Of a stretch of 64,000 bases of DNA, positions 592 to 60,442 are shown piece after piece. This stretch comes from a virus. Location: the IMG/VR virus record IMGVR_UViG_3300035670_009638, positions 1-64,000 of that record, one strand, 5' to 3'. Below the pieces are notes generated by a model. It ran no database searches. It had not been told where the DNA came from and saw nothing but the letters and a program-made list of their open reading frames with translations. The position numbers and the translations under genes were made by a program. Within the stretch, counting starts at the first letter, position 1; the number at the start of each line of letters is the position of its first letter.

Positions 592-653
592 GTTACTCCC
601 TCCGATTTTAGATTTTTGTAGTTGAGAATGAGTTCTATTACTCATTTGATATA

Positions 654-21200: not shown

Positions 21201-23453
21201 ACTTTAAATACTAGAATGTCGGATGCAGAAGCTCAATTAACTGTTCATTCGAACGAAATTTCAACTAAAGTAACTTTAGATGAAGTTAAAGACGAAGCTA
21301 GAAGATCTGGAAATGAAGTTGTAAAAGCTCGTTATGTTCGTATTTATTCTAATGGAAACACAGTAAATACTAGCAACCATTTAGTTGAAGTTAAGGTTAT
21401 GAAAGATGATGTTAACCTTGCAAAAGGTTTAATTGCCACAAGTTCAACTACAATGAGTTATCCTGAAAGAATGACTGACGAAGTTATTGACACTTATCAA
21501 TATTCATCTTTCGGAAGTGGAAGACAATGGGTTCAATTCGATTTAGGCCAAATTTATGATGATATAGATTATATTCAAGTTTGGTTTTATTGGGCAGATG
21601 GAAGAAGTTACAACTATGAAGTTGAAGTTTCAGAAGACTCAATAAACTGGATGAACCTATTTGATACTAGCCGAAGTGGAAGACCTAAAGCAACTAGCTC
21701 GGGATTTGTTATTTTAGTTAACAAACAAGCTTCAATTAGTTCTTTAGCAAGTTCTATTAAACAAACTGCAAATAGCATCAACCTTAGAGTTGATAATGTC
21801 GAAGGAACTGCAAATACAGCAAAATCTTCTGCCGATACTGCTAATAATAAAATAGATAATCTAAAAGTTGGTGGTCGAAATCTTCTTTATAACTCCACCG
21901 GTGAAATAACTAACGAAAATGGAGAAGCTGATGGATGGGCAGCAGGAACGGTTGTTGAGCATGTTGAAAATAAAACTTGTTTAACAATTCATACCGCATC
22001 AACTACAGAAGTAACAAAAGCTTCTGAAAGATTTAGAGTGAAACCTAATACAAAATATGCGGTTAGAGCTTTAGTTAAAGGTACTACTAATGCTAAAGGT
22101 TTTGACATTTTCTTTTTAGGTAGACCATTAAGTTCAGCTAACAACTATGATTTTATTCATAATATGAATGCTGTCTTGCCTACTGATAAATTAACTGAAA
22201 AGTTTTGGACCTTTACTACAGAATCAACTGAGGAAGAAGGCTACATCAGAATTGATAACAATGGCTCTTCTGATGGATTAAATGCAACTGTTTGGTTCTC
22301 CGAAATTCAAATTGAAGAAGGAGATAAACATACAACTTGGAAACCTTCATTGGATGATACAGAGCAACGAATGGCTTCAGTTGAGCAAAGATTGTCAAAT
22401 GCTGAAATTGCAATTTCTGATAGTTCTATTATAAGTACAGTTATGAACTCTACAGAATATCAAGTTGCAATGGAAGGAAAAGCAAATTCAGACGATCTTG
22501 CTGGTTATGCAACAACTGGTCAGTTATCAGAAATGGAAACGTCTCTAAATAATAGTATAGATGATAAAATTTCTGCACTTGATATTGGGTCATATGTAAA
22601 AAGCTCTGAACTGAGTCAAACTTCTAGCGATTTAACTGCCAAATTCTCTAGAGCTGGTGGAGTCAACTTAATAAAGAACTCTGTTGGTTTTGCTGGATTT
22701 GAGTTTTGGAATGCCCCGACTCCAGATAGGTATAGTGTTGTAAGTCACTCAGCATTAGACTATCTTGGATTTGGTAGTGGTTTCTATTTCCCTTACCACG
22801 GAACATCTCCCAGATATATTACTCAAGAAGTTAATGTTGTATCGGGCAATCCATATACATTATCTTGGTTTGTGAATAAAACAAATAGTGATCCGGCAAC
22901 AAATAATGCAGGAGCTTTTTATGTTCAAGTATTAGAATATGATGCTTCTGGAAATACCCTTTACACTATGAGTTATAGATATGGTAGCGAAGTAACTACT
23001 AATGGTTATGAAGAGCATTTTGAAACATTTACTCCAGTGACCAATAAAATCACAGTGAGATTGTATGCTTATCAAAATGTTGATGCTACTGCAACTGGTC
23101 TAATGCTAAATGTTGGTGATGTTCCATTACAATGGACAATGGCACCAGGGGAAATCTATAACACAAATGTACGAATGGATATGAAAGGTTTAAAAGTATC
23201 TAAGTTTGAAGGGGAAAAAGAAACAAAATTCACCGTTATGACACCAGAACGTTTTGCAGGTTTTTATGATGTAAATGGTGACGGTGTAATTGAGGACTAT
23301 GATGGTTCTCCTGACGAAGTATTCAAAATGGACGAAGACTCGTTTATCATGAAGAAAGCCGTTATTAAGGAAGAACAATCTATGGGTCCGATGAAAATAA
23401 TTAAAATTGAAAGCGCTTCAAATACTGGATGGGCTTTTGTTCCTTCAGAATAA
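18216..23453 (+). CDS. tail spike / Tal-type protein with coiled coils, two discoidin-like repeats and CBM-like domains
   Basis: Prophage-tail N-terminus (FTYGKDL..IER, TALIGVG); duplicated RYVR..NGNTVN..NH.VE domain; GGRNLL and GGVNLIKNS domain starts. Confidence 0.85.
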   Translation: MTDSRHQNLYVLDYMKETIGILSNRMPSSLPFYNDLHQRSLDDFTDYITFSVPSNHEGAEKITADRYILYPVFNEGYKLYKIKEVKEIRESGERRKEVYAEISAQDDLIKDVVRPATHTSASLETVITTILSNSDWKVGHVDDFGIKDYNIDDYPNKLEALVDAVKAYGGELEFEYIVRGTKIISQIVNVYEQVGERTGKTFTYGKDLVGIERIEDTTKLVTALIGVGPEKDGIKLSFYNQSATQLGAPEGFEKPTNADWVGSLEAFQKYSTNGKHIFGVFKDDKAQSSYELFNNTLEALKKYSKPLMTYKAKVALLERIAGYEHEVVRLGDTVMIIDKEMGITVKARIRKLQRSITNPESGGVELGDYIPVVPPINDRISAIQSKIRDREDIWNKAQEVPQIQQELAQKADKGDLFSVPSQRMKIRYVRDYINGNTVNSHNHWVELQVWRKGINLAKGIIPTGTETITNASYITDGIIDSLSYASMGTGLQYIELDLGQVYDDVEYIHTWHYYSDGRTYNDHRVDVSEDGLTWVHLYSSELNGSHIETSEGLIVPVNSSAIISTQKKEQNQVVIRVGDLEDFKLSTEEILPQKVNLVDYNNKVTQLENDIAAKAGLDYVDGQLLLKADNTRVDTLANDVANKADKLYVDDNLILKADKSTTYTKTEVDNALNSKVSTTTYDTDINGIVSRLDSAETRITQTENEITLKASKTEVEQAKDLATASTVKPVFSGNSSNISVNQGTFETTPEGNIRITGTGSDVMLYLNPSSPFSGGKNERIAIRVRYIADNGTPSWQGQIYYQTATHTDSESYTKKGIPQPAKDGKWHTISVDMHDLTTGGTDWKDNNIIKVRLDFWNYAIWEVQFVVIGTVSTDFATPESVDALEQRISTAETSITQNSNEISLRAKSSDVYTKTETDTKVNAKADQTTVDNLTTRVSNAEAQLTVHSNEIAARVKTVDYDADMSGVVTRLDTAEANITANANEISLKASQSSVDTLNTRMSDAEAQLTVHSNEISTKVTLDEVKDEARRSGNEVVKARYVRIYSNGNTVNTSNHLVEVKVMKDDVNLAKGLIATSSTTMSYPERMTDEVIDTYQYSSFGSGRQWVQFDLGQIYDDIDYIQVWFYWADGRSYNYEVEVSEDSINWMNLFDTSRSGRPKATSSGFVILVNKQASISSLASSIKQTANSINLRVDNVEGTANTAKSSADTANNKIDNLKVGGRNLLYNSTGEITNENGEADGWAAGTVVEHVENKTCLTIHTASTTEVTKASERFRVKPNTKYAVRALVKGTTNAKGFDIFFLGRPLSSANNYDFIHNMNAVLPTDKLTEKFWTFTTESTEEEGYIRIDNNGSSDGLNATVWFSEIQIEEGDKHTTWKPSLDDTEQRMASVEQRLSNAEIAISDSSIISTVMNSTEYQVAMEGKANSDDLAGYATTGQLSEMETSLNNSIDDKISALDIGSYVKSSELSQTSSDLTAKFSRAGGVNLIKNSVGFAGFEFWNAPTPDRYSVVSHSALDYLGFGSGFYFPYHGTSPRYITQEVNVVSGNPYTLSWFVNKTNSDPATNNAGAFYVQVLEYDASGNTLYTMSYRYGSEVTTNGYEEHFETFTPVTNKITVRLYAYQNVDATATGLMLNVGDVPLQWTMAPGEIYNTNVRMDMKGLKVSKFEGEKETKFTVMTPERFAGFYDVNGDGVIEDYDGSPDEVFKMDEDSFIMKKAVIKEEQSMGPMKIIKIESASNTGWAFVPSE

Positions 23454-30743: not shown

Positions 30744-31139
30744 TTATTCAGCGTACTTGAACAGATAGCCGCCAGTTTTAAATTTTCGACCCGCAACAGT
30801 TTCTTTTCCAGTTTTAAGTGAATGCTTCACCCAACCAACATTACAGATATTGTTTTCTGTTGCCCACTTGAAAGTTTCTAATAATCCATTAATTGTATTT
30901 ACTAGTTGACCATCTTTATATACTTCAATAACTCTTCTACGCCCTCTTCGTGGTTGAGGTTTTTCTACTTCTTCTTGTTGAGATTGTTCAGATTGCTCTT
31001 CAGCAATTCTAGCTTCTTCTTCAAGGATTGGAGTTAAAGCATCGATTAATTGTTGTTTATTCATATCCCAACGACCAGTAATATTTTTTTCTCCTGCTAG
31101 ATTTCTAAGTTCTTTTACTTTCATTTCTTGTAAATTCAT
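30744..31139 (-). CDS. Rho N-terminal-like domain protein
   Basis: MKVKELRNLAGEKNITGRWDMNKQQLIDAL. Confidence 0.75.
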   Translation of the reverse strand: MNLQEMKVKELRNLAGEKNITGRWDMNKQQLIDALTPILEEEARIAEEQSEQSQQEEVEKPQPRRGRRRVIEVYKDGQLVNTINGLLETFKWATENNICNVGWVKHSLKTGKETVAGRKFKTGGYLFKYAE

Positions 31140-31321
31140 TTTTCTTACCTCCAATTTAGTAGTTGAATTTTTTTTATATCTCTCTAATTATTATTATATA
31201 CAGATTCTACCAACTCGTAAACACTTTTTTTGCAATATTTTGAAAGTTCTTGCAACTTTTTGTCAAAAAAAGAGAGGCTTTAGGCCCCTCTAAAATCACT
31301 CAACTAAATAAATCAGAAATA

Positions 31322-39405: not shown

Positions 39406-40350
39406 TTATTTGTCATCATTTAACCAATCGTATAATACACTCTTACCAGTAGAAGAATAATCAAAAACATAAAACTGTTCTTTCTTGTAAGTGAAAGCTT
39501 GCTCTACCCATTCTTTAATTAGACCTCTCATATTCTTTATGTCTTTAACTCTAGTAAGCATCTTAACTACCGTATTACTAAACTCGTAATCATTTAAAGC
39601 TTCAGGATCTTCCATAGAGCAATCAGGAATTATAAATCCTTTAGAAATTTGGTATTTATAAGCATCTTCAATTTCTAGTATTTGAGAAGCATTTAAATAG
39701 ATTTGTTTATTAACAATCATAACCTTAATCCTATTCTTTAATTCTTGAGGTAAATTACAATCCCATAGTATTTCATATATATCTACTAGATTAGGATTAG
39801 GATTAAGATTTTTATTTATATTTATTTCTTTTATATCTGTTTTATTTATATCTATTTTATTTAATAGGTGCTCGTTTTCAACAGTTGAAAATGAACTGTT
39901 GATGTTCAATTGTTGATTTTCAGCACTTGAAGAAACCTTGATTTGACGCGATTCTTTCAATTGTTGATTTTCGTCAATTGAAAGTAAATGACCAAAAGTG
40001 CTGCTAATTTCCATAATCTTGAAGTCTACTTGTACTTCCTCAATTAGCTCAACTACTTCTTCATCAGAAAAAGGAACGTCTGAAATATGATAGATATGTT
40101 CATTCTTTTTTCCATTTCTGTACTTTATATCAATCCAAAATTTCTTTTCTTCCAATTCTTTAATTGCATGAGAAATAGCAGCTCTACCAAACTTTGAATA
40201 TAGCTGCATTTTTCTAATCTCCCAAGTTTCTGGTAAAGACATTAAATGAGCTATCAAACCGATAGATCTAATATCTTCCAAATTTTGAAGAGGATTATTA
40301 TGGATTTGCGCATACTTGACTGTCTTCCTACGTTTAATGATATTTGACAT
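39406..40350 (-). CDS. replication initiator (N-terminal winged HTH) with internal iterons
   Basis: GLIAHLMSLPETW...AIKELEE; internal direct repeats; antisense-type leader. Confidence 0.8.
   Translation of the reverse strand: MSNIIKRRKTVKYAQIHNNPLQNLEDIRSIGLIAHLMSLPETWEIRKMQLYSKFGRAAISHAIKELEEKKFWIDIKYRNGKKNEHIYHISDVPFSDEEVVELIEEVQVDFKIMEISSTFGHLLSIDENQQLKESRQIKVSSSAENQQLNINSSFSTVENEHLLNKIDINKTDIKEININKNLNPNPNLVDIYEILWDCNLPQELKNRIKVMIVNKQIYLNASQILEIEDAYKYQISKGFIIPDCSMEDPEALNDYEFSNTVVKMLTRVKDIKNMRGLIKEWVEQAFTYKKEQFYVFDYSSTGKSVLYDWLNDDK
39790..39985. repeat. candidate origin: iterons plus AT-rich tract inside rep
   Basis: TTCAATTGTTGATTTTC at 39905 and 39956, palindrome TTTTCAAC-A-GTTGAAAA at 39875-39891, AT-rich 39790-39865. 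Confidence 0.65.
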
Positions 40351-40407: not shown

Positions 40408-40484
40408 AACCAAATTAAATGCACTTGTGAACTTTGGTCGGGGATCAGGTGTTGCAGTAGACGAGTTGGCGCTCGTCTATTTTT
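40408..40484 (+). ncRNA. countertranscript (antisense) RNA to the rep leader
   Basis: Promoter TTGATT-18-TATAAT with extended TG (40372-40401); two hairpins with loops TTTGGTCG and TTGGCG; T-tract. Confidence 0.75.
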
Positions 40485-40518
40485 ATTATAATCTTAATTA
40501 TTGATACCGTAAATTGAA

Positions 40519-40547
40519 TTGACGATATAACCTCAACATGGTAAAAT
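40519..40547 (+). promoter_or_regulatory. strong sigma-A promoter of the sRNA
   Basis: TTGACG-17-TAAAAT with extended TG. Confidence 0.75.
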
Positions 40548-40553
40548 ATAAGT

Positions 40554-40619
40554 AGTAGTTGAGTTAAGCAATTAACTTGTTGTCCTGAATCTTTCCTCCG
40601 ATTGGTTCAGGACCTTTTT
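40554..40619 (+). ncRNA. candidate trans-acting sRNA with an anti-RBS loop
   Basis: Bounded by promoter and terminator; GCAA-tetraloop hairpin; 10-bp stem displaying UUUCCUCCGAUU. Confidence 0.7.
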
Positions 40620-40974
40620 ATGTATATTCATCAAAGAATGGCTCTAAGTATTCTGATTTTCCACAGGTGGGACAGACCTCTACAGAATTGGAAACTTTAT
40701 TACATAATTCGCAATATGCTTTTCCTTTTCTCTCATCATCAATTACTTCCTCAACATATTCTTCCATAATTCTTATTCCTTTTTTAGTTATTCCAGGTAT
40801 AGGCTTAGTATTAAATTCATGCTTAAATAACATTTCAGTATCTACTTCAATAATTTTTCCAGCTAATTTTTTTAATGCTCTTTCCCATTTATCTTTTCCG
40901 TTGTATGTACCATTCCAGTCTGTATGTTCTTGTATGTATAGTTCGGCAGCATCTTTTCTGATTCTAATCTTCAC
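40618..40974 (-). CDS. hypothetical protein with C-terminal zinc ribbon
   Basis: GTG after GGAGGTG; CELC...CPTC. Confidence 0.75.
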   Translation of the reverse strand: MKIRIRKDAAELYIQEHTDWNGTYNGKDKWERALKKLAGKIIEVDTEMLFKHEFNTKPIPGITKKGIRIMEEYVEEVIDDERKGKAYCELCNKVSNSVEVCPTCGKSEYLEPFFDEYT

Positions 40975-42442: not shown

Positions 42443-43198
42443 TTAAGCTAGCTTAGCGATGTATCGTTGGGCTCTTTTGAATTGTTTTACTACCGGTTTA
42501 TTATCTGAAAGACCAACTTCTTCTAGCATTTCATCAAGAGCTTCTTCGTTGTTGCTTGACTGTAATGGAGTCATCTCTTGAATATTTGCTGCTGTTTCAA
42601 CTAACTTGTGTGTGAATTCGATCCATGCAAGAATTTCATTAATATTTGTTGTTCCTTGATGATGTCTGAACTCAATTGTTCCATACTTAACGTATGCTCT
42701 GTTGTTTAAATTGTAATATCTTGAACGGATTGAGTTTTTAAATTCTTCGATATTGGAAGCGCTTTCAACATTTTCCATAATTGGAGCAATTGGACTGCAA
42801 TAAGAACTTATTCTTCTTGATGGATTAATGATTGAGTAAATTGCATTTCTTTCATATTTATTATAAAGTCTGTATAAGTTTTTGATTTGGTTTATGTTGA
42901 AATCGTTGATATCATGATGAACATGTAAACCAGTTTTCTTATTACAACGAACTTTCAACTCTTTTCTTAAAACATGAACTACAGTTTTTAATTCTTCTGT
43001 GTCAGTAAGTGGTGGGCTAACAATCTCCCATCCATTGATTGAAGCATCTGGTTGAACTTTCCATGCATTGTGATTTACTGGGCTTCCGTAACGATCACCT
43101 TCAACATTAATTCCAGCATTTTGTAATGCTTCAATTACCTCATAACGAGATTTACTTGTTGCTACTTCTAATTCTGCTCCAAATTTCATTTGTCTCAT
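42443..43198 (-). CDS. putative amidoligase (COOH-NH2 ligase type 2)
   Basis: FGAELE, DASI..WEIVSP, GLHVH, TIEFRHHQGT motifs. Confidence 0.9.
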   Translation of the reverse strand: MRQMKFGAELEVATSKSRYEVIEALQNAGINVEGDRYGSPVNHNAWKVQPDASINGWEIVSPPLTDTEELKTVVHVLRKELKVRCNKKTGLHVHHDINDFNINQIKNLYRLYNKYERNAIYSIINPSRRISSYCSPIAPIMENVESASNIEEFKNSIRSRYYNLNNRAYVKYGTIEFRHHQGTTNINEILAWIEFTHKLVETAANIQEMTPLQSSNNEEALDEMLEEVGLSDNKPVVKQFKRAQRYIAKLA

Positions 43199-43271
43199 TT
43201 TAATTACCTCCGATTTTTTTATTTTAGTTGAGTGATTATTTATATCTCTCTCTATTTATTATTATATCATG

Positions 43272-44709: not shown

Positions 44710-45306
44710 TTAGGCGATCTCTAGATATTGTTCGGCAACTACTTTTTGTAATTTCTTCTTAAGTTTATTCACTCTTTGGTTGGCAGCCTGACGAGTGATA
44801 CCATATTTATCAGCGTAATTTTGAACTGAGAAGGATTTTTTGTCGAGGATAACTTTTAGGAGATCTTCTTCTCCAGGTTCAATGCTTTCTTGAATGATGG
44901 CAGTCAATTCTTTGAAAGCAAGGTTGTCCATTGAGTTGTCATCTGTTGCGAACATATCTTCAAGTTTGAGATCGTCGTCTCCAACAGGAGCGTTCATTGA
45001 AACTGTAACACCTTGATTTTTCAAGGAGTATTTATGGTAAGTGGCGTTTCTTACACCTTTTTGAAGTTTGTAATATAGATAAGTTGTGAAGCAATTTCCC
45101 TGAGTTGGTTCATATTGCTCATATGCTCTCCATAATTCTAAATCAAGTTCTTGTCTAAAATCTTCTTCTTCTACTGCGTTGAAGATAAACTTGTTGTTTG
45201 CTCTCTTCATAGCTTTAATGACCATTGGAGTAAATTGTTCTCTTACTTCTTCAAAAGTCATTTCCTTGCTAGTGTTATCAGAAAATAAGATTGTCTTTGT
45301 CATCAT
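44710..45306 (-). CDS. phage RNA polymerase sigma factor (sigma-70 regions 2 and 4)
   Basis: EEDFRQELDLELWRAYEQY...FTTY, SMNAPVG, HTH YADKYGITRQAANQR. Confidence 0.9.
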   Translation of the reverse strand: MMTKTILFSDNTSKEMTFEEVREQFTPMVIKAMKRANNKFIFNAVEEEDFRQELDLELWRAYEQYEPTQGNCFTTYLYYKLQKGVRNATYHKYSLKNQGVTVSMNAPVGDDDLKLEDMFATDDNSMDNLAFKELTAIIQESIEPGEEDLLKVILDKKSFSVQNYADKYGITRQAANQRVNKLKKKLQKVVAEQYLEIA

Positions 45307-45352
45307 AATAAAGTTCTCCTCCGATTCATTAATTTTTATATCTCACATTTTA

Positions 45353-46568: not shown

Positions 46569-47116
46569 GATTGTTTACCTCCTTGGATTATTTTTAGTAT
46601 TTCATTAAGTACTCCAGATTTGGTAGTTTTATTTATTACATAGTCAACTTCTTTTTCGAAGTCTTTAAAGTCTTCTTCGTCTGCCATTAATCTTCTAAGA
46701 AGTTCGTTCACCCGGTCTTTCCGATTCAGTCCTCGAAGCAATCTGATCTCAAGATCTACCATTAGATAAATTCCAGTTACATTTTCTTTGCCAAGATTTT
46801 TAACTAAATCTCTGTAACCTTTTGGTTCAGTTACAACCACAAGATCTTTAGTTAAATCAATATCCTGGCGATTGATAGCATAATGCCATTCTGTTCCGAA
46901 AGCATTTTTAAATGTGTTCTTAGCAATCAATAGGTTGAATTCGTCAAGATGGTTATATTGTTGATCAGAAATAAAGTAATAATCTTTTCCACTAACTTCA
47001 TTTTTTCTTTTTGGTCGAGTTGTGTAAGTTATGATGGTTTCATATCCAATGTTAATGAGTTGCTTTAAAGTCGTGGTTTTACCAGAACAAGTTGGTCCCA
47101 ATAAAACATAAATCAT
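46565..47116 (-). CDS. gmk: guanylate kinase-like nucleotide kinase
   Basis: GPTCSGKTT, YTTRPKRKNEVSGKDYYF. Confidence 0.88.
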   Translation of the reverse strand: MIYVLLGPTCSGKTTTLKQLINIGYETIITYTTRPKRKNEVSGKDYYFISDQQYNHLDEFNLLIAKNTFKNAFGTEWHYAINRQDIDLTKDLVVVTEPKGYRDLVKNLGKENVTGIYLMVDLEIRLLRGLNRKDRVNELLRRLMADEEDFKDFEKEVDYVINKTTKSGVLNEILKIIQGGKQS

Positions 47117-47400
47117 AAGCAACCACCCTTTATTCTATTGGCCAAAGTTCCTTTAGCTTCGTATAGCAAAGCTTCTAAAGTCTTTGAATCAAAAACACCA
47201 TCATGTCTTACTAGCTCATTTCCTCGTTTATCTGAAAAAATAATTGTATGCCATTTTTCAGGATGATATTTTTCTACGACTTCGTTATCAAGTTTTATTC
47301 TTTCAAGCTTGTACCCTTCTAATTTAGCTTCATCAATCTGACGATCTAAGAACGGAACAATCAAGCTGTCTTCTTCGTAAAGATAAATAATTTTTATCAT
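47113..47400 (-). CDS. hypothetical protein, possibly thioredoxin-like fold without CxxC
   Basis: TIIFSDKRGNELVRHDG resembles a thioredoxin C-terminus. Confidence 0.55.
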   Translation of the reverse strand: MIKIIYLYEEDSLIVPFLDRQIDEAKLEGYKLERIKLDNEVVEKYHPEKWHTIIFSDKRGNELVRHDGVFDSKTLEALLYEAKGTLANRIKGGCL

Positions 47401-47452
47401 AATCGTTCCTCCGATATTTAGTAGTTAAGTAACCAGAGAGAAATCTCTCTGA

Positions 47453-48067
47453 TTACAAAATATCAATAGCGATCTTCGACCAGTTTTCTAATCTGTCATA
47501 GAATTGCTTCAGCTTTAATTTTTCGATTGAGAAGAATTGTCCTTGAAGTTCTTCAGTTTCACGAACCTGAACATCTGTATCTTCTGGAACTTCAATTGCA
47601 ACTAATACTCCAATATGAACTCGACCAACTTCATCTTCATCATCATTTATAAGTCCAATAGGAGTTACTTTGAAGTTCTTATTATCAATAACTAGTTCTT
47701 CTTCAATTTCTCGTAGAAGGTTTTCATCCAGGACTTTATTAAAATCTTTTTCATCTGGAACTTCATTCATATGGCCACCAACACCTATTGAAAGTTTATT
47801 GTGCAATCTTGTTTCTCCTGCACCTTTCAATCGTTCATAAACAAAAACTTCATTTCCACGTTTTATAACTGCATATGGAATTGGTTGTTTGAAGTTTTCA
47901 TCTTCTTCTGCATTTCCACGTCTCATCACTTCATAAGTGTTGCTGATATTTTTTACGATTTTATTTACTATCTTTTTATCTTGAAAAGTTCCTTGGAATA
48001 CAAGCTTTTCATTTTCAAAGACTTCAGAACGTGGAGCAACAATAATCATTTCATCCATTTTTCCCAT
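47453..48067 (-). CDS. NUDIX-superfamily phosphoesterase (YmaB-like)
   Basis: KQPIPY, SIGVGGHMN, REIEEEL, VGRVHIG motifs. Confidence 0.85.
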   Translation of the reverse strand: MGKMDEMIIVAPRSEVFENEKLVFQGTFQDKKIVNKIVKNISNTYEVMRRGNAEEDENFKQPIPYAVIKRGNEVFVYERLKGAGETRLHNKLSIGVGGHMNEVPDEKDFNKVLDENLLREIEEELVIDNKNFKVTPIGLINDDEDEVGRVHIGVLVAIEVPEDTDVQVRETEELQGQFFSIEKLKLKQFYDRLENWSKIAIDIL

Positions 48068-48199
48068 ATTTAAAAACCTCCGATTAATAAGAATTGAAAG
48101 AATTTATATCCGAAATATGAATAAATAACAGTTGCAGATAATGAAACAAAGAAATGAATAACAAGAATAGTGTTGTATAGTTTGTTACTCATAAACTGA

Positions 48200-48406
48200 T
48201 CACTCCGTAACTACCAAGTCGGCAGCTCGATAATATTCAACAACGACAGTAACAATGAAATATTCGATCTCTTTTCTTTGTCGTTTAGCAATTGTATAAT
48301 CTTTTAAATTACTTCCATGTTCTTCTTTCATTTGTTGAACCATAGATTCGGCTTCTAAAAGAGTGTCAGCGAAAAAAGTTTCTTTTTTACCCATCAAAGT
48401 TTTCAT
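48200..48406 (-). CDS. hypothetical protein
   Basis: ORF with ATCGGAGG RBS. Confidence 0.75.
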   Translation of the reverse strand: MKTLMGKKETFFADTLLEAESMVQQMKEEHGSNLKDYTIAKRQRKEIEYFIVTVVVEYYRAADLVVTE

Positions 48407-48426
48407 AGTTTATTTACCTCCGATTT

Positions 48427-48792
48427 TTAATATCCATTTTCTTGTCTTTCGTAGTTGACTTTGTTTTTAGCAATATACATGCTGATAATTTCTTCTTCAT
48501 TTCTAAAACCAAGAGCTAAACCAACATTTATAGCAAAATGAAGGAAATCAATATATTCTTCTTTAGATAATTTATTTTGGATCTCAAGTTTTTCTGGTCC
48601 CCATTTCAAATACTTTGAAGACCAATCTTTAGCAAACGGTACTTCATGAAGCATTTCATGTAGTTCATCTGTAGCCCATAGCATGTGTTCTTTTATATAT
48701 TTAGCTCGTTCTTGCAAGTCCATAGAATCCAAGTCATAACCCATACGTTTTTGAAATTTAAGTTGGGAATCAAGTAAAAATTGAAGTGTCAT
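48427..48792 (-). CDS. all-alpha (dimeric dUTPase / dCTPase-like) dNTP pyrophosphatase
   Basis: DELHE, KDWS, EEYIDFLHF, KNKVNYERQENGY; start at ATG 48792. Confidence 0.85.
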   Translation of the reverse strand: MTLQFLLDSQLKFQKRMGYDLDSMDLQERAKYIKEHMLWATDELHEMLHEVPFAKDWSSKYLKWGPEKLEIQNKLSKEEYIDFLHFAINVGLALGFRNEEEIISMYIAKNKVNYERQENGY

Positions 48793-48922: not shown

Positions 48923-51900
48923 TTACTCCCCAACTTTTTCCATTTGTAAGTAAAGGTTATCTGAGTTATAACCGTTCACTTTCATGCAAGTATGATTAAA
49001 TTGGGTTCCAGTTTTTCTTAATACAAATTCTTCTCCCTTTCTAAATCCTACAAGAACTAAGATTGTTCCTCGTTCGAACCAGCTTGGGTCCAATACCTGC
49101 TTCTCTTTTCCATTCACTCGAACAACTTTCTTGTCATAATGAGCAAATTGTCCCTTAGTGAATCGAACAGTTACAACACCAGAAGGAGTGAGAACATAAA
49201 CCAAAGACTTTCCTTTTGCTTTATCAACAACTGTTCCAGCAATAACATCGATTTTGAATTGAGGAATTTTTCTTCCTCTATAACTCTTGTAACCAGTTAC
49301 AACCGGCTCTTTTGGCAGTTCTTCAAAATCTACTACATTGAAATACTTGTCAATTGGCATATAGTCTAGTTCATGCTTATCAGAATAGAATAAATTTGTT
49401 TCCATCTCCCAGGACTCAACTGCTCCTCTACAGTTCTTTTTCCAGAATTCTTGCATCTTTACTTTATTGAAAAGAGTTGCAGCTTCTGGGGAAGTGACCC
49501 AGTCTTTTAATTTTTCAATTGCTTTTCCATAGAACTTGTTCCAACTCTTCTCATCGATTTTAAGTTGGCCATCAACAAAATCATAATTAACTTGGCTAGA
49601 ATAATTTTTGATAAAGTCTGACTCAATCTCTTTGTTCATTGGAACTTTGTTTCTTCCTTGAATTTTGTGTCTAAATTCATAGATCTCAAGTTCTTTAGCA
49701 AACTTCTCTTTATCTACTAAATGTGCAATCACAGGGAATTGAACCATTGTGAGCTTTTCTCGTTTTGGTGTTACTAATCTGACATAATCGATCATTAGCT
49801 GTCTTCTATCAGGATTCAACTTATCGAAGCAACCAGATTTGATTAAAGTAACACCTTTTGCATCAGAAATAAGTTTTGTTTTGATGACTCTTTCATAGAA
49901 GTCTACAAAACTTTCATATGGTCTGTTTTGGATAATAGCTTCAATAGCATCAACACCTAAACCAGAGATTGGCTTTAGACCAAACAATATTTTTCCTTCA
50001 GATTCTAGTGGAGTGAATCCCATATTTGACAAGTTAATATCTGGAGGAAGTATATCACCTTTCATATCTCCAATAGCTTTAGCGATTGCTCCGTAGTTTG
50101 TTCCAGCTGCACTATCACCAAGTAGACCAGCATTTACCGATAAGCATGCAGTCTTCCACCAAACTGGACCAAATCGATAACAAATGTTCATTTCAATCAT
50201 CAAAATTAATGTATATCCAGCAATATGAGGAAGAGAGAAAGAATAACCAAACTGAGGCTTTAGTTCTTTTTCCCATACATAATCAAGGAACTCTTTTCTT
50301 GTGCCATTCTTTTCTCCGCCTTCATAGAATAGAATTCTTTGTTCTTCAATTAATTTTTGATTCTGTTTAGCCACAGCTTTACGAAATTTGTTTGCTTGAG
50401 TTAAACTAAATCCAGCAATTTTCGGGTCCATAGAGAGCAACATAAGACCTTCTTGAGTATCACAAATTCCATATCGATCTAATAAGTGTTTCTCAAGTAC
50501 TTTAATTTCATCTTGTGTCAATCCATATTCGTTCATTTCTTCATACCATTGGTTAATATCATTTTTAAAACGAACGAATTTATCAAGAGGTTGTTCTCCG
50601 TCTGTTGAAAGTCTCATTAAAGAGTTGCCAGCACACAACTCTTCAAAGTTTCTTGGATTGATTTTAGTTAGAGCTTGAATTCCTACTGCAGTCTCAAATT
50701 GGAAAGCATTTAGAACATGACCTTCGAATAACATATCCCACATTTCTGGCGCTTCCATTTCAAGTACGTCAGGATGGAAATATTTGTTGTAAGTTTCTCG
50801 TAGAGTTCCTTGCCATTCAATTTTTCCATGTTCAAGAAGCAAATCCATTGCAGCTCTAATTCTGTCCAATGCGTTGATTGAAAGATAATCAAGTTTAAGG
50901 GCTCCCATATAAACAGAATCATTCATATCAAATTGAGTAACAGGCAAGCCAGATGTTGTTTTCATCATTGCATTTTGAGCAACATATCCATCTGGGAAGA
51001 TAATAACTCCTGAAGCATGTTGTCCACGTCCTGAAATTAGACCCTCAATTGATAACATTGCTTCTTTTAAACCATCATATTTTTCTACTTCAGCAATAAA
51101 ATCTTTAGCTGGTTTTTTACCTTTGGCTGGGTTTCCATTAAAGCATTCATCTAAATTCCAAATTCCACCTTTTTCAGTAGGAATTAAGTTTGCAATATTA
51201 TGAGCAATATCTTTATCAATTCCTAAGCCACGACAAGCAGTTAAAACTGTTGATCGAGTGCCCTCAGTTGTGAATGTTCCCATGTTTAAAACATTTTCTT
51301 CTCCATAAGCTTCCTTAGTTAAAGAAATTATTTCTGCTCGTTTTGACCCTTCTGAGTCTAAATCAATATCAGGAAGTTCAACACGTTCTTTGGATAAGAA
51401 ACGCCAATGAGGAAGATTGTGTTTTAATGGATTAATTTGAACGATGTCTAAAAGATAATTTAGATAGAAACAGCTTGCAGAACCACGAGAAACACCAACT
51501 AATGATACTTGCCACATTAGGTCAACTACTTCTTTTGTTAGAACAAAGTAAGATGACATTGGCTGATTAAGTTTTTCAGTGATGTGATATAACTCATTTA
51601 ATTCTGTATCAATACGACTTAAGTTTGTTTCGTTTAACTCTTCATTTTTTGAAATCATTCCTTCAGCAATCAAATGAAGATAGTAACGATCAACTTCATA
51701 TTTCGATTCTGAGTATTTTTTGATATATTCATATTTGTCATAGAACTGTTCAAATAAAGGATTGAGTTCAAATTTTGGAATATGAGCTTTCGGAATTTTA
51801 ACTTCTTGTTCGAATTTTATAGGCTGAATTTTTTTCATGATCAGATGAGTGTTTCTAATCAGTTCATCTAAAAGCTGTTCATCGAAGTATTCAAGCAGTT

Positions 51901-52714
51901 CTTCTCGATTCATTACATAAGTTGTTGCGTAGAAAGCTTCAACTTCTCTTTCACCTTGAGACGATTGCAAATAGATTTTGTGTGCTGTTGCTTGGTCTTT
52001 ATTTAGATAATGAGCATCTGTTGAAACAACACAAGTAACACCATATGCTTGACCAATTTTATAAAGCATTTTGTTAGCAATTTGTTGGTCTCTGTTATGG
52101 CTTGGCTGTAGCTCAAAATACAAGTCATCACCAAAAACACCTTTAAGCCAAACAACAAGATTATGAACATTTCTTTTGTTCTCTTCTGTTGGTTCATCAT
52201 GATATTTAATTAAAAGTTGTGGTACCTCTCCACCAACACAAGCTGTTGTAGCAATGATATGTCCTCGGTATTCTTCCATAAGAGCCATTAATTCATCTTT
52301 ATATGTTGGTACTCGTTCCATTCCTCGATAGAAAAACGAATTATACCAAGCTCGTGATGATAATTTTCTGAGGCCTTCATATCCTTTATCGTCTTTGGCA
52401 ATTAAGATAAAGTGATGGAATGAAACCCTTTCATTAATTTCTCTTTTCTCTTGAACTTCATCTTTATCAACTAGATATATCTCGTTTCCGAATGCAAGGA
52501 CAAACTTTCCAAATCTATCTCTATTACTCTCAACATACTGGTGTGCTTTCACGTGAGAAGACAAAGTCTCATGATCGGTTATTGCGATTCCTGGCAATCC
52601 AAGTTCTAGTGCATAGTCTAATAACTCTTCTGGCTTGTTAATAGCATCTCGTAACCGAAAATTCGACGCGTGCGTGTGGTTATGGACTGAAAAAGGTTGT
52701 AGTAGTTGAGTCAT
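48923..52714 (-). CDS. dnaE: DNA polymerase III alpha subunit
   Basis: PHP domain (HNHT, AITDHE), RGSA, PDIDLD, QHASGV, KLDYL motifs. Confidence 0.96.
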   Translation of the reverse strand: MTQLLQPFSVHNHTHASNFRLRDAINKPEELLDYALELGLPGIAITDHETLSSHVKAHQYVESNRDRFGKFVLAFGNEIYLVDKDEVQEKREINERVSFHHFILIAKDDKGYEGLRKLSSRAWYNSFFYRGMERVPTYKDELMALMEEYRGHIIATTACVGGEVPQLLIKYHDEPTEENKRNVHNLVVWLKGVFGDDLYFELQPSHNRDQQIANKMLYKIGQAYGVTCVVSTDAHYLNKDQATAHKIYLQSSQGEREVEAFYATTYVMNREELLEYFDEQLLDELIRNTHLIMKKIQPIKFEQEVKIPKAHIPKFELNPLFEQFYDKYEYIKKYSESKYEVDRYYLHLIAEGMISKNEELNETNLSRIDTELNELYHITEKLNQPMSSYFVLTKEVVDLMWQVSLVGVSRGSASCFYLNYLLDIVQINPLKHNLPHWRFLSKERVELPDIDLDSEGSKRAEIISLTKEAYGEENVLNMGTFTTEGTRSTVLTACRGLGIDKDIAHNIANLIPTEKGGIWNLDECFNGNPAKGKKPAKDFIAEVEKYDGLKEAMLSIEGLISGRGQHASGVIIFPDGYVAQNAMMKTTSGLPVTQFDMNDSVYMGALKLDYLSINALDRIRAAMDLLLEHGKIEWQGTLRETYNKYFHPDVLEMEAPEMWDMLFEGHVLNAFQFETAVGIQALTKINPRNFEELCAGNSLMRLSTDGEQPLDKFVRFKNDINQWYEEMNEYGLTQDEIKVLEKHLLDRYGICDTQEGLMLLSMDPKIAGFSLTQANKFRKAVAKQNQKLIEEQRILFYEGGEKNGTRKEFLDYVWEKELKPQFGYSFSLPHIAGYTLILMIEMNICYRFGPVWWKTACLSVNAGLLGDSAAGTNYGAIAKAIGDMKGDILPPDINLSNMGFTPLESEGKILFGLKPISGLGVDAIEAIIQNRPYESFVDFYERVIKTKLISDAKGVTLIKSGCFDKLNPDRRQLMIDYVRLVTPKREKLTMVQFPVIAHLVDKEKFAKELEIYEFRHKIQGRNKVPMNKEIESDFIKNYSSQVNYDFVDGQLKIDEKSWNKFYGKAIEKLKDWVTSPEAATLFNKVKMQEFWKKNCRGAVESWEMETNLFYSDKHELDYMPIDKYFNVVDFEELPKEPVVTGYKSYRGRKIPQFKIDVIAGTVVDKAKGKSLVYVLTPSGVVTVRFTKGQFAHYDKKVVRVNGKEKQVLDPSWFERGTILVLVGFRKGEEFVLRKTGTQFNHTCMKVNGYNSDNLYLQMEKVGE

Positions 52715-53751: not shown

Positions 53752-54207
53752 TTAATCTTCAATCTTTTTCTTTTTTCCTTTGAAAATATGAGGCATGCTA
53801 ACAAAAATATTTATATCAACTTTTGAACCAGGAAGATATTTGTTAACAAAATAATTAAAGAATTGAACATCATCTTCAAGATTCAAAAGGTTAGAAGATC
53901 TTTGGAATGCATTGATTTGCTTAACTTTATTGTTTTCATCAAATATGAAATGAATTGTTGAAATACATTCTTCTGAATGATACATAACTTGTCTTTCTGA
54001 AGTTATCCATCCATGTTCATACTTGAATAACAAATGTCTTAGCTGCATTTCAAGTGAAGTATAATATGGTTCATCAGAAGGTGGAAAATCAGTTTTTGTA
54101 ACTGGATTAATCAAGAGGAATGGCTCAAATAGAACCATATCCTCAGTCTCTTTTGAAACTAATAATTCATCAACAACTGGTAGTTCATATTGAAAACTTG
54201 TGAGCAT
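53752..54207 (-). CDS. minimal thymidylate-synthase (ThyA)-fold protein, possible dCMP-modifying enzyme
   Basis: SERQ...ECISTIHF, AFQRSSN..LEDD and SMPHIF align to ThyA / dCMP hydroxymethylase motifs. Confidence 0.6.
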   Translation of the reverse strand: MLTSFQYELPVVDELLVSKETEDMVLFEPFLLINPVTKTDFPPSDEPYYTSLEMQLRHLLFKYEHGWITSERQVMYHSEECISTIHFIFDENNKVKQINAFQRSSNLLNLEDDVQFFNYFVNKYLPGSKVDINIFVSMPHIFKGKKKKIED

Positions 54208-55175
54208 TAAAGATTACCTCCACGAAGTTCTTCCATGTATTTTTTAGATTGAGCAGCAAGTAATTCAAGCTCTTTCTTATACTCAGCAAACATCTTCTGG
54301 AAGATTGTTGGACCTTCTGGAGGATTTGTTCCATTAACTTCCTCACGATATGCTTGATAGATAAAGTCTTTCTCGTTCCATTCGAATTTGTCTGAGTTTT
54401 CTTCAGGGAAGTATAAGTTTGTTGCATGTCCATTACGAGCATTTTTAATGTAATGGAATGATGGCATTTCAAAATCAATAATGTTCAAGTGAGCAATTGG
54501 ATATGCTTTACATACTGCTAACCACATTTGATATGCAATGATGTTATCTGATTTTGGTTGAATTTGTCGGTCAATACGTTGCTTAACAAATCCAAGTAAA
54601 TCTTTAAAGTTACAACTTGCATAATAGAAATTGTCATGGTTTTTATTAAGAATTAATCGAGCATCCATAATTGAAATTTGTTTAGAATCAATCATGTCTT
54701 GATATAACTTTCTGCATTCATAAGTTAATTGTTTATATCGTTCATAGAATTCTGGAGAGTTTTGAATAGCTTCTGGAACTACTGCTGTATGATGGGTTAA
54801 CCAGCGATCTCCAGTACACTGAGCTGAGAATGAGAAAGTTCGATGGCGAATTAAATGAGTTACGTCCTGAACTGAAATACCTTCAATTCGGAAAGTTAAA
54901 CGAATTGTTTCAAGAATAGAAGGTAAAGTTTTGAAAGTGAAAGCTTTCTCGATATCTTCAACTACTTGTTCCATAGAATATTCTTGTCCAGGCTCATCTG
55001 CCCAAGTTGCATTTACATAACCAGGAAGGTAATTAACAATGTTTTGCCATGGAGTATGATCGACTAGGGTAACATTAATATTCTCTAAGTCATTAACAAA
55101 CTCAAAATCTGGTTCTTCACCGAAACGTAATTCCATTGGTAATTTTACAGGTTCAAGATTGTTATTTTTTGGCAT
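54207..55175 (-). CDS. thyX: flavin-dependent thymidylate synthase (ThyX)-like protein, variant active site
   Basis: HLIRHRTFSFSAQC, DARLIL, NFKDLLGFVKQR motifs; start at ATG 55175. Confidence 0.85.
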   Translation of the reverse strand: MPKNNNLEPVKLPMELRFGEEPDFEFVNDLENINVTLVDHTPWQNIVNYLPGYVNATWADEPGQEYSMEQVVEDIEKAFTFKTLPSILETIRLTFRIEGISVQDVTHLIRHRTFSFSAQCTGDRWLTHHTAVVPEAIQNSPEFYERYKQLTYECRKLYQDMIDSKQISIMDARLILNKNHDNFYYASCNFKDLLGFVKQRIDRQIQPKSDNIIAYQMWLAVCKAYPIAHLNIIDFEMPSFHYIKNARNGHATNLYFPEENSDKFEWNEKDFIYQAYREEVNGTNPPEGPTIFQKMFAEYKKELELLAAQSKKYMEELRGGNL

Positions 55176-55238
55176 AATAGAAAACCTCCGATTGATTAAA
55201 TAATTTTTTAAATAAGTTATTAAATAACTCACATTGTA

Positions 55239-55889: not shown

Positions 55890-56338
55890 ATCATCTCATC
55901 CATTGCTTTATTTGCTAATTCATCTGCTCTCTCATTTCCAGGTTCACCGGAATGGCCTTTGACTTTAGTGAATTGGATAAATGCAAACTTATTAATCAAA
56001 TCAATAAGTTCAATCCACAATTCTCTGTTTTCAACTGGAGTTTTAGCTGATGTAACCCATCCATTATTCATCCATTTGACATACCATTTTTGGTTGATGC
56101 AATTACATACATAAGCTGAATCAGTTCGTACTTCAACAGGGATATTAAACTTTTTCATAGCTCTGAGGCCTTCAATAGCAGCTTTTAATTCCATTTGATT
56201 ATTAGTTACATTTCTAAAACCTTGATACAATTCTTTGGTGTGTTCTCCGTATTGAAGAACAACACCATAACCTCCAATTGAATTAGTTTTACTATTACCT
56301 CTCGAACCGCCATCAACGTAAATTACAACTCTACTCAT
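55886..56338 (-). CDS. rnhA: ribonuclease HI
   Basis: YVDGGSRGN, TNNQMEL, TDSAY, KVKGHSG..GNERADELA. Confidence 0.95.
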   Translation of the reverse strand: MSRVVIYVDGGSRGNSKTNSIGGYGVVLQYGEHTKELYQGFRNVTNNQMELKAAIEGLRAMKKFNIPVEVRTDSAYVCNCINQKWYVKWMNNGWVTSAKTPVENRELWIELIDLINKFAFIQFTKVKGHSGEPGNERADELANKAMDEMI

Positions 56339-57366
56339 TAAAGAATTCCTCCTTCAATAAGTTCTTTAACAATTTCTGAAACGTGTTTCTCGGTTGTATC
56401 AATTTTGATTTTGTTTTTATATGCAGAATTATCAAAGTAAAATTCCATAACTGCTTTATGATAATCAAAATCTAGTATTTCATGGTTTGTTTCAATACAT
56501 CTTCTTTCTAATTCTTCTGTCGAGCAATCAATATAAATTGCTAAAACACAATCTGATTTTGCAAGTTGGATTTCCATTTCCTTATAAGTTTCTTTTAGAT
56601 CGTCGCTTTTTTCAAAAATATCACAATATGCTTGGAAAGATTCGGGTCCTCTATCCATTGTCATATGTTTATATTTTGTTTGTTTATCAATTTCATTGAT
56701 TAATGTATCTTTACCAGCTCGATCTACAGCAGAAATAACAATTATTTTTGGAGAAGACTCAAGAATATATTCCATTCTAATTCCTTCCAAATGTTTATAT
56801 TTTGAATAAGGAGTTTTATAAGGTTCTCCAGTTCTTAATAGTTCTTTTACTTTTCCTGAACTTAGTCCAAAATTTTCTTTAAAGTATTTGTAAGCTTCTC
56901 CAACAAAATTAAAGAAAATTTGTTTCCCATCAGGCATTATAAGTTTGCATTTCCTTCTTGATGGAGAGGGTTTGCCATACATTCCATTGTTTTTTCCTAA
57001 AACTCTTTCTTTCTGTTCATCTGACCATTTATTTCCGTAATTTGGATTATCTTGTCCCTTATACATTTCAGAGAATTCAATTCTTGTTTTCTCTGAAATT
57101 CTTTCTCCTTCTTTTTTATTAAATCTGGCTTCACCTAAATTATGGTATCTTTTTGTAAGTATTTCTTCGTATTTAAAAGCTATCATCTTATCATCAAATT
57201 CTTTTACAATTTCAATATCAACACTTTCTTTAAGGTAAGGTCGTTGGTGCCAATCGCCATATGCTCTACCACCAGAACCTTTACCAACATAAAGAACTTC
57301 TCCAGTTTCTTTATCTTTGTGGATATAAACATAATGTTTAGTAGTAATTGAGATTTGTTTAGTCAT
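56338..57366 (-). CDS. GIY-YIG endonuclease fused to a thymidylate-kinase-like P-loop domain
   Basis: YVY..LYVGKGSGGR N-terminus; IIVISAVDRAGKDT and MDRG C-terminal domain. Confidence 0.8.
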   Translation of the reverse strand: MTKQISITTKHYVYIHKDKETGEVLYVGKGSGGRAYGDWHQRPYLKESVDIEIVKEFDDKMIAFKYEEILTKRYHNLGEARFNKKEGERISEKTRIEFSEMYKGQDNPNYGNKWSDEQKERVLGKNNGMYGKPSPSRRKCKLIMPDGKQIFFNFVGEAYKYFKENFGLSSGKVKELLRTGEPYKTPYSKYKHLEGIRMEYILESSPKIIVISAVDRAGKDTLINEIDKQTKYKHMTMDRGPESFQAYCDIFEKSDDLKETYKEMEIQLAKSDCVLAIYIDCSTEELERRCIETNHEILDFDYHKAVMEFYFDNSAYKNKIKIDTTEKHVSEIVKELIEGGIL

Positions 57367-57404
57367 AACTCTTATAACCTCCGATTTATTTATTTCTCAT
57401 AACT

Positions 57405-58986: not shown

Positions 58987-59547
58987 TTATTTAGATTCCT
59001 CAGTAATTTTATCTTCAAGTTTTTGAATTAAACGAGCAACTCTTTCTTGAGCCCCTTCATTAATATCTCTCATTTGGGGTGTTTGATTGCCTAAACTAAT
59101 TTCACGATTAGAGTATTGAAGGACTGAAACTGTATCAGCTAATTTAGTGACCAAGTAAGGAATTGTCTCTTGCTTTTCTTCTTCAATGAATTTCTTGTAT
59201 GAATCCAAGTATTCTGGCATATTTTGTTCCAAAGCAATTACTTCAGCTTGCTCACAAGCTTCTCTTAATGCAGGATTATTTACTTTTGTGTCATATGGAA
59301 TATCTCCAACCATTAGTTCTGGAATATCATGAACTGTTGCAAATTCTAAAGCTTTATATTTAATTTCATCACTTAAGTTGAACATTTTAACAATTTTTAA
59401 GACAGTTGTAATTACATAAAACGAATGTTCGGCAACATTTTCATGTTTAATCTTTGGTCTGTTATTGTATCGAATAATCTCACCAAGACCTAAAATTGTA
59501 GTATCACCTAACGTACGAACTTTACCACGATTGAAATATCCTGACAT
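58987..59547 (-). CDS. HD-domain deoxynucleotide hydrolase (YfbR/DatZ-like)
   Basis: IRY..ENVAEHSFYV, HDIPE..GDIP..K, KLAD motifs. Confidence 0.9.
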   Translation of the reverse strand: MSGYFNRGKVRTLGDTTILGLGEIIRYNNRPKIKHENVAEHSFYVITTVLKIVKMFNLSDEIKYKALEFATVHDIPELMVGDIPYDTKVNNPALREACEQAEVIALEQNMPEYLDSYKKFIEEEKQETIPYLVTKLADTVSVLQYSNREISLGNQTPQMRDINEGAQERVARLIQKLEDKITEESK

Positions 59548-59602
59548 ATAGCATTCCTCCGATTGATTTAGTAATTGGGTGGAAGGGATTAAACCCTTCC
59601 GT

Positions 59603-59923: not shown

Positions 59924-60382
59924 TTATTCAATAAGACCTTCATAATAAATTTCTTCACCAAGAATTGCTGCTTCAAGTTCTTCGACTGTTCGACAGGCTG
60001 CAACTCCAGACTCAGCTAACATCAAGTTAAACATGCCATCTTTTCCAAGAGTAAAAGCAACATAAATTACTGGAATTTTTGAAGCAAAAGCATGACCAGC
60101 TTCAAAAATAGTTCCCATATCTTTTCCATCTGTAATAGCAATTAGGAACTCAGCTCCTTCAATTCCTTTAACATTCATTTCGAAAGATTTCTTACGAACT
60201 TCTGGAGAAGAAATAGGACCGATAGCTGACTGTTTTCGTGGTGAAAAATATGTGAATCCATGTTTTTCTAGTAATGTTTCTACTAAAGCAACACGAGTGA
60301 TTTGATCTGGATTAAAGAACGGTGCTGCAATATAAACATGATGTTTCTTTCCTTCTTTTAATGAACGAGTAGTTTGAGTCAT
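59924..60382 (-). CDS. nucleoside 2-deoxyribosyltransferase / nucleotide N-hydrolase family protein
   Basis: VYIAAPFF, FSPR, DMGTIFEAG, NLML motifs. Confidence 0.88.
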   Translation of the reverse strand: MTQTTRSLKEGKKHHVYIAAPFFNPDQITRVALVETLLEKHGFTYFSPRKQSAIGPISSPEVRKKSFEMNVKGIEGAEFLIAITDGKDMGTIFEAGHAFASKIPVIYVAFTLGKDGMFNLMLAESGVAACRTVEELEAAILGEEIYYEGLIE

Positions 60383-60442
60383 GATTTATTTCCTCCGATT
60401 TCATATTTTTATTTCGTGAGTATTTATATCTCTCACATTGTA

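Follow-up and report, generated by a model that had tools for sequence, protein, structure and literature searches.

A candidate phage-encoded sRNA with a terminator loop complementary to extended Shine-Dalgarno sequences of early and middle genes in a relative of Geobacillus phage GR1

The window, i.e. the whole stretch of 64,000 nt analysed here, comprises bases 1-64000 of an IMG/VR virus record of 82.5 kb with a completeness estimate of 98%. Gene calls are crude, and the counts given below are based on 103 genes, 69 on the minus strand and 34 on the plus strand. The structural late genes occupy the plus strand between ~2.8 and 30.2 kb, and ~70 early/middle genes are encoded on the minus strand. 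Both ends of the record share the same sequence of >100 nt, found at window position 52 and genome position 82359 (within 1-200 and 82300-82501), which contains the promoter and leader of a 50-codon gene. These overlapping ends suggest a genome of ~82.3 kb that is circular or terminally redundant. Among described phages, Geobacillus phage GR1 (OK896991.1, 79 kb) is the closest, with ~87% identity across 60 kb.

The locus under study fills a 267-bp gap between two minus-strand genes that code for a Zn-ribbon protein (40618..40974) and the replication initiator (39406..40350). It comprises the following elements:

40485..40513, minus strand: back-to-back promoter of the replication-gene operon (TTTACG-17-TATAAT); the divergent arrangement is kept in the homologs
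40519..40547, plus strand: predicted sigma-A-type promoter (TTGACG at 40519-24, 17-nt spacer with TG at 40539-40, TAAAAT at 40542-47)
40554..40619, plus strand: predicted sRNA of ~66 nt without ORF (fold, identity to GR1, covariance model R1)
40554..40563, plus strand: 5' single-stranded segment AGUAGUUGAG (seed 2), of which GUAGUUGAG is invariant in four distinct homologs
40561..40578, plus strand: hairpin 1 of the predicted fold, 7-bp stem with GCAA loop
40582..40613, plus strand: hairpin 2, the terminator stem of 10 bp (40582-91 with 40604-13), based on the fold and compensatory changes
40592..40603, plus strand: seed 1, the 12-nt loop UUUCCUCCGAUU, complementary to SD and tag, invariant in four distinct homologs
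40614..40619, plus strand: tail of the intrinsic terminator (one C and five T), which extends into the stop codon of the convergent gene 40618..40974

A preliminary description had proposed a near-consensus promoter and a terminator that bound an ORF-less plus-strand unit of ~66 nt, and all these elements were found where it had placed them. Promoter-like matches alone are not significant in this AT-rich DNA (20 found vs 13.5 expected in 2.5 kb); the promoter at 40519-40547 counts because it is conserved and not because of the motif match alone. The predicted sRNA folds with -21.5 kcal/mol (z = -4.3 compared to shuffled sequences). Its loop UUUCCUCCGAUU is the complement of AAUCGGAGG(AAA), and RNAfold closes two pairs within the 12 nt, leaving CUCC exposed. 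At gathering score, Rfam yielded no family at the sRNA and, across the whole window, only a tRNA-like match at 3927-3996 on the plus strand (29.7 bits vs a gathering score of 29). When E values up to 10 were admitted for 40300-40700, only chance sub-threshold matches with E of at least 1.2 appeared. A Pfam search of the genes neighbouring the sRNA revealed neither an RNA chaperone nor an RNA-binding candidate.

Beside this locus, a second small plus-strand unit is located at 40372-40490, with TTGATT-18-TATAAT including a TG and a terminator at 40456-81. It is wholly antisense to the structured leader of ~130 nt that precedes the replication gene. A T-to-C exchange present in GR1 in the 12-bp stem of this leader results in a G.U pair on the minus strand and an A.C mismatch on the plus strand. 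In a related phage (G002, see below), the loop of the terminator hairpin of the second unit is inverted. The same phage carries an extra gene of ~120 codons (L017:1690-2060) between the sRNA promoter and the replication-gene leader; its coding strand is that of the early genes and not that of the sRNA, and it has a phage-type promoter of its own. Despite the inserted gene, the G002 sRNA gene is still arranged tail-to-tail with the Zn-ribbon gene.

Four distinct versions of the sRNA were found: that of the window, which is the same in GR1, those of two IMG/VR phages and that of one metagenome contig. The three diverged copies were detected by pattern scans:

IMG/VR contig 3300025519_000053 (G002)
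IMG/VR contig 3300025519_000052 (G004, 84 kb, complete)
metagenome contig Ga0157374_10332273 (L037)

The initial patterns (AGTAGTTGAG...TTCCTCCGAT) had returned only chance matches in coding sequences from the viral and genome collections, and the true homologs were retrieved after the 5' base and hairpin 1 had been loosened in the search pattern. A search for related loci with the replication protein gave no matches. With covariance model R1, four related genomes or contigs yield one copy apiece. Four DNA metagenomes contained only short contig pieces identical to the window over the sRNA and, hence, added no variation. Between GR1 and the window, the 66 nt of the sRNA are 100% identical, whereas differences affect 6 of the 17 bases of the promoter spacer and the sequence immediately beyond the T tract. 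The intergenic region 40351-40617 shares 95.5% identity with GR1 compared to 81.8% amino acid identity for the adjacent replication protein (39406-40350), which means that the intergenic DNA is under more constraint than the replication gene. In the homologs, the -35 box reads TTGACG, TTGATT, TTGACA or TTGACT. All of them retain TAAAAT as -10 box at a spacing of 17 nt, and the spacers are unrelated. Conservation starts with GUAGUUGAG, which begins 7-8 nt downstream of the -10 box in the four distinct homologs. A T tract of 5-8 follows hairpin 2 in every homolog on the plus strand only; on the minus strand, no such tract follows it.

The four distinct sequences were aligned with the help of the model, and a MAFFT alignment was set aside because it misaligned the G002 loop. 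In helix 2, 100% of the cells are paired and 5 of 10 pairs are changed on both sides. Its covariation score was matched in 1 of 500 shuffles, and pairing was lost when the partners were slid by 1-3 columns. The structure of helix 2 fits the plus strand only, because seven G.U cells become A.C mismatches on the minus strand, whose fold reaches -15.1 kcal/mol compared to the -21.5 kcal/mol of the plus strand. The 12-nt loop is unchanged though the window and L037 disagree at ~45% of their stem bases. At the place of hairpin 1, some hairpin is present in all homologs (84% of the cells paired, no double changes); it is rebuilt between them without support from covariation. For G002, the minimum-energy fold (-19.2 kcal/mol) buries both seeds and is more stable than the homologous fold (-14.3 kcal/mol). 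Each genome has only one strong terminator hairpin with a CCUCC loop, and this is the predicted sRNA. A promoter and a terminator around a region without ORF as well as conserved seeds and covariation among four distinct sequences are the features of a trans-encoded sRNA. Judged by them, 40554-40619 is very probably a plus-strand sRNA gene.

The complement of the sRNA loop is a prominent word at gene starts. The 8-mer ATCGGAGG is present in 12 copies on the minus strand of the window and in 17 copies in the 82.5-kb genome, with 0 copies on the plus strand, and every CGGAGG on the minus strand of the genome is part of it. In an unbiased k-mer count over positions -40 to +15 of the 69 minus-strand starts, for which no words were preselected, ATCGGAGG proved to be the top 8-mer (15 starts vs 0.34 expected) and AACTACT the best 7-mer apart from SD words and A-runs (10 starts vs 0.7 expected). 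A second count over -40 to +18 of all 103 genes found AATCGGAGG at 14 starts vs 0.47 expected and AACTACT at 12 vs 1.1, so that both motifs are enriched at starts, as the preliminary description had led one to expect. Taken as a word of 8 or 9 letters, the loop complement AAUCGGAGG is the most enriched one at minus-strand starts. The tag is always located 16-20 nt 5' of the start codon. AACUACU is found either beside the SD (-31 to -19) or in codons 2-4 (+5 to +10). Seed complementarity is, thus, enriched at the start regions of unlinked genes. The late plus-strand starts have an AAGGAGG SD and 0 tag copies. The sole ATCGGAGG copy outside gene starts and the sRNA locus (19335-19342, minus strand) lies antisense within the plus-strand tail gene 18216..23453 and is probably due to chance.

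The following sites were recorded in the window:

599..606, minus strand: tagged SD (ATCGGAGG, exact motif) of gene 313..591
43207..43214, minus strand: tagged SD of the amidoligase gene 42443..43198
45318..45325, minus strand: tagged SD of the sigma factor gene 44710..45306; the leader diverges, yet GR1, G001 and G002 retain the tag
47408..47415, minus strand: tagged SD of gene 47113..47400 (thioredoxin-like), with AACTACT at 47420-26, 5 nt upstream; tag in 5/5 genomes
48077..48084, minus strand: tagged SD of the NUDIX gene 47453..48067
48417..48424, minus strand: tagged SD of gene 48200..48406
55185..55192, minus strand: tagged SD of the ThyX-like gene 54207..55175
57378..57385, minus strand: tagged SD of gene 56338..57366
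59556..59563, minus strand: tagged SD of the HD-domain gene 58987..59547
60368..60403, minus strand: start region of the NDT gene 59924..60382, with a 12/12 loop match at 60389-60400 and AACUACU in codons 3-5 (60368-74)
52701..52707, minus strand: AACUACU in codons 2-5 of dnaE (48923..52714), tail duplex -14.0 kcal/mol
31158..31164, minus strand: AACUACU directly 5' of the SD of gene 30744..31139
33, 2596, 34443, 41675, 44444 and 48793, minus strand: further AACUACU copies
661, 45360, 48862, 52758, 55246, 57412, 60450 and 62916, continuing to genome position 80617, minus strand: examples of phage-type promoter-like copies just 5' of operon-first genes

All ten starts at which the preliminary description had seen the complement of the loop carry it, including the 12/12 match at 60389; the exact 8-mer is positioned at 59556 and 60392 in the last two. 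Its list of sites for the 5' end holds as well, except for 618 and 43225, where only the partial matches CAACTACA and CAACTAAA are present. The claim that neither motif occurs at late plus-strand starts is correct for the tag, but AACTACT is found at two plus-strand starts, 27432 and 60552, the latter inside the early block. The NDT start region was, in antisense orientation, the best non-self match of model R1. Genome-wide, the tagged genes include those for the sigma factor, a ThyX-like protein, RNR beta, two NDT, NUDIX, HD-domain and thioredoxin-like proteins and the amidoligase. About 15 genes bear the tag here and 16-21 do so in GR1; most of them come first in operons behind the phage-specific promoter described next.

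A promoter-like motif specific to the phage, (A/T)TTTACGTTT-N12-CAGATATAAAT, also written TTTACGTTT-N12-GATATAAAT, is present ~18 times in the genome and is often followed by ACAATGTGAG. All copies are on the early/middle strand, and the sigma factor gene 44710..45306 carries two of them; they are probably read by this phage sigma factor. Among the first genes behind phage-type promoters 8 of 14 are tagged vs 6 of 43 internal genes. AACTACT is more frequent behind early-type promoters. Many tagged leaders open with a hairpin and a stretch rich in A.

Sigma-A-type early promoters were observed on the minus strand at 31180, 34598, 43246 and 52 (= genome 82359). They have a TTTACG-like -35 box followed by TATAATAATAATTAGAGAGATATAAA, which combines the -10 box with a conserved initial transcribed sequence and often leads into an AACTACT leader. 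Within the minus-strand block, a plus-strand gene at 60552-61082 encodes a MerR-HTH/DUF3967 protein, and its leader contains both motifs in a variant form (AACTACTATAATCGGGGG) that is conserved in relatives. This protein could be a regulator that is itself targeted by the sRNA.

Related genomes display the same strand bias: tag copies on the gene strand and the opposite strand number 21 vs 0 in GR1, 8 vs 0 in G001, 5 vs 0 in G002 and 7 vs 0 in G004. G001 is a half-genome fragment that closely resembles G002, and the sRNA locus lies outside this fragment. Over five genomes, AATC precedes a GGAGG-type SD at 47 of 180 early-strand sites and at 0 of 39 late-strand sites. AATCGGAGG is kept in orthologous leaders with diverged flanks (sigma factor, thioredoxin-like protein, RNR beta and NDT). 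Turnover of the tag between relatives, for example to ATTGGAGG, was also seen, and the sigma factor gene of G004 has no tag. The sRNA, the tag and the AACTACT enrichment co-occur in the window phage, GR1, G002 and G004, and AACTACT is ~10-fold enriched at starts in the window phage, GR1 and G004. G003, a more distant relative with a complete genome of 95 kb and a 35% identical sigma factor, has no sRNA, no tag, no AACTACT enrichment and no comparable terminator with a CCUCC loop; for its commonest extended SD, AATGGAGG, no matching loop was found. Covariation between seeds and targets in related phages, suggested in the preliminary description as a check, is absent because the loop never varies in the four distinct homologs. 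An invariant regulator facing many targets is the expected pattern, though this is no proof. Among one-off variants of the tag, counts were too small, and too much confounded by AT-richness, to reveal a preference for wobble-compatible changes. The link between sRNA and tag is based on complementarity, enrichment and co-occurrence within one small clade.

Duplex energies were calculated with a 16S 3' end sequence taken from general knowledge. The tag pairs with the sRNA loop at -15.1 kcal/mol and with the 16S tail at -10.9 kcal/mol at 37 °C, and at -10.7 vs -7.7 kcal/mol at 55 °C. With a canonical SD, the 16S tail reaches -18.6 kcal/mol compared to -10.9 kcal/mol with the tag; the pairing of the tag is weaker because the C directly 5' of GGAGG breaks the AGGAGG extension. 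A loop duplex of -13 kcal/mol or lower is predicted for 23 of 69 minus-strand starts and 3 of 34 plus-strand starts; among intragenic controls the share is 1.6%. Good scores for both seeds together were obtained at seven minus-strand starts and at 0 plus-strand starts. The duplex of seed 2 (7 nt, AU-rich) is weak at host growth temperature, with -6 to -9 kcal/mol at 55-65 °C. In most leaders AACUACU sits 5' of the SD, an order that does not allow a single continuous duplex with both seeds. Only NDT (59924..60382), dnaE and 48427..48792 are colinear with the sRNA, and in the non-colinear leaders the two contacts would need separate helices.

Our main reading, to which we assign a rough probability of 55%, is that the RNA acts in trans as an anti-SD sRNA that lowers translation of the tagged early/middle genes including the sigma factor gene. 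Host sigma-A RNA polymerase would transcribe 40554-40619, and the transcript would end at the intrinsic terminator encoded in the unit itself. Through its loop (CCUCCGAUU within UUUCCUCCGAUU), this terminator would pair with the private SD extension AAUCGGAGG. As the tag pairs worse with 16S rRNA than a canonical SD does and far better with the sRNA, the latter could outcompete 30S subunits at tagged SDs, so that translation of the tagged set would fall. The 5' end (A)GUAGUUGAG may provide a second, weaker contact with AACUACU beside the SD or in codons 2-5, and this contact may either add affinity or extend the target set to the early sigma-A-driven leaders and dnaE. With regard to timing, the sRNA might impose a delay or threshold on the translation of the sigma factor and the middle genes, or it might serve in their shut-off. 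A strong sigma-A promoter implies that the repressor would be made alongside its early/middle targets, so that an assumption on titration or timing is needed. We infer transcription, pairing in vivo, the repressive sign and the timing from the DNA sequence.

The arrangement of the locus would also suit a local role, in which the RNA is a cis-antisense or convergent-transcription element that stops or processes read-through of the tdk/Zn-ribbon operon into the replication operon, or an origin-associated transcript beside the initiator gene, and the match to the tag is incidental. The sRNA gene is always tail-to-tail with the Zn-ribbon gene, overlapping its stop codon, and back-to-back with the minus-strand promoter by the replication-gene leader. 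Moreover, no minus-strand terminator was found between 40618 and the replication promoter, and the adjacent second plus-strand unit is antisense to the replication-gene leader. However, a local function does not require the 12-nt loop and the 5' end to stay unchanged next to drifting stems, and it leaves unexplained why the loop is the exact complement of the top start-site word of the genome. In addition, G002 has the extra gene between the sRNA gene and the replication-gene leader. We therefore consider an exclusively local role unlikely.

Complementarity, enrichment and conservation apply equally if the sRNA pairs with the tagged leaders to a positive or protective effect, be it as a shield of the SD region against an endonuclease, by opening an inhibitory structure in the leader or by holding the mRNAs for a later stage. 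The hairpins and A-rich stretches at the beginning of many tagged leaders would suit such an effect, and so would the early (sigma-A) class of the sRNA promoter, which would provide for effector and targets being made together. Nevertheless, 9-12 bp over an SD represent the textbook geometry of occlusion, the sRNA duplex is predicted to be stronger than the 16S pairing, and neither a nuclease site nor an inhibitory structure common to the tagged leaders was found. Activation or protection thus appears improbable.

A role in host take-over or defence evasion, with host mRNAs as main targets and the phage tags as a by-product or as an aid to self-titration, would agree with the frequent action of published phage sRNAs on host genes (bioRxiv 10.1101/2024.10.31.621285; PMC13502914). 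The CCUCC core would touch any SD, but the GAUU flank pairs with AAUC at 47 phage SDs in five genomes, and we consider host mRNAs rather improbable as the main targets. Least of all can the locus be expected to act as DNA or on the minus strand, with an SD-like AAUCGGAGGAAA in the loop of a read-through mRNA as decoy or operator for a protein or 30S subunits and no plus-strand sRNA: all 17 of 17 ATCGGAGG copies, that of the sRNA locus included, share one orientation and the flanking genes are all on the minus strand, but the seven G.U pairs of helix 2 and two of hairpin 1 become A.C, the fold is the weaker one on this strand, the T tract is on the plus side only, the conserved sigma-A promoter with its variable spacer points inward, and the SD-like loop has no start codon downstream.

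Returning to the anti-SD repressor, the preliminary description had combined it with a role in prophage maintenance. The sRNA gene is supported by the evidence above, as are its two conserved segments complementary to start motifs; neither the prophage part nor the constitutive expression assumed with it is supported. In a sigma-factor comparison, the closest phages are ~86-kb Enterococcus and Staphylococcus phages, which are virulent. A tyrosine recombinase gene is present in the phage, and no integrated copy was seen. GR1 has been designated temperate, with integrase genes as the only ground (PMC10237291). A prophage-stabilising role is unsupported, since integrase genes are all that suggests temperate life, the record ends overlap and the record carries no host flanks.

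Temporal programmes of phages are usually attributed to transcription, i.e. to sigma factors, antiterminators and repressors. One may speculate on a broader concept, which we propose only tentatively: the private SD tag AAUCGGAGG and AACUACU might form an RNA addressing system that marks ~20 early/middle genes including those for the sigma factor and dnaE, and a single sRNA reading both might serve as master translational gate for the threshold or timing of the sigma cascade and, possibly, for the decision between lysis and lysogeny. The main reading is directly testable, as a letter-identical RNA is present in the cultured phage GR1 and its host, G. stearothermophilus ATCC 10149, is available. 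If it is correct, an SD tag with its matched sRNA would serve as a compact switch for orthogonal control of translation in thermophilic Bacillota.

C-rich-loop sRNAs of Firmicutes, such as those of the RsaE/RoxS, LhrC and RNAIII type, act in trans and pair via their loops with the SDs of many mRNAs. The RNA described here resembles them in that it belongs to the same host phylum and uses a terminator hairpin as functional loop. Those sRNAs are chromosomal, carry CCCC/UCCC and control metabolic or virulence regulons; the RNA described here is phage-encoded, and its CCUCC is extended by a 4-nt flank that matches the phage tag. Neither RsaE/RoxS nor any other curated Rfam family matched the sRNA in 40300-40700.

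Among phage RNAs, the nearest published analogue is the c4 antisense RNA of P1/P7. According to a review, loop segments of c4 pair with two short phage mRNA sites, one of them over the RBS, and translation is blocked (PMC12197685; Citron and Schuster, 1990, cited therein). Similarly, the RNA here is phage-encoded and has exposed segments complementary to sites in RBS regions. In contrast to c4, which acts on one operon (icd-ant) in an immunity locus, it has its own promoter and ~15-20 dispersed candidate targets with an SD tag. Its neighbours are the genes for the Zn-ribbon protein and the replication initiator, and there is no antirepressor gene as in the c4 operon. The Rfam C4 model matched nowhere in the window at gathering score, and admitting E values up to 10 for 40300-40700 gave no C4 match either. 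The same 2025 review on phage sRNAs contains no example from a Gram-positive phage; the words 'Bacillus' and 'Gram-positive' occur 0 times each (PMC12197685). The sRNAs of Pseudomonas phage PAK_P3 had been considered as a precedent for many phage RBS targets, but on checking this did not hold.

Phage-wide control at translation initiation regions is also found in T4, where RegA is a translational repressor of a class of early genes. The second T4 factor, RegB, is described as an endoribonuclease that cleaves GGAG in early SDs (PMC9409239). Like RegA/RegB, the system proposed here would be a phage-wide post-transcriptional switch that turns off the early class via initiation regions. RegA and RegB are proteins; in the present system an RNA is proposed to take their part, and the gene class would be marked by a tag that is read through base pairing. 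If this holds true, one sRNA reading the RBS tag of a whole gene class would constitute a regulon-wide layer of translational control, the RNA counterpart of RegA/RegB.
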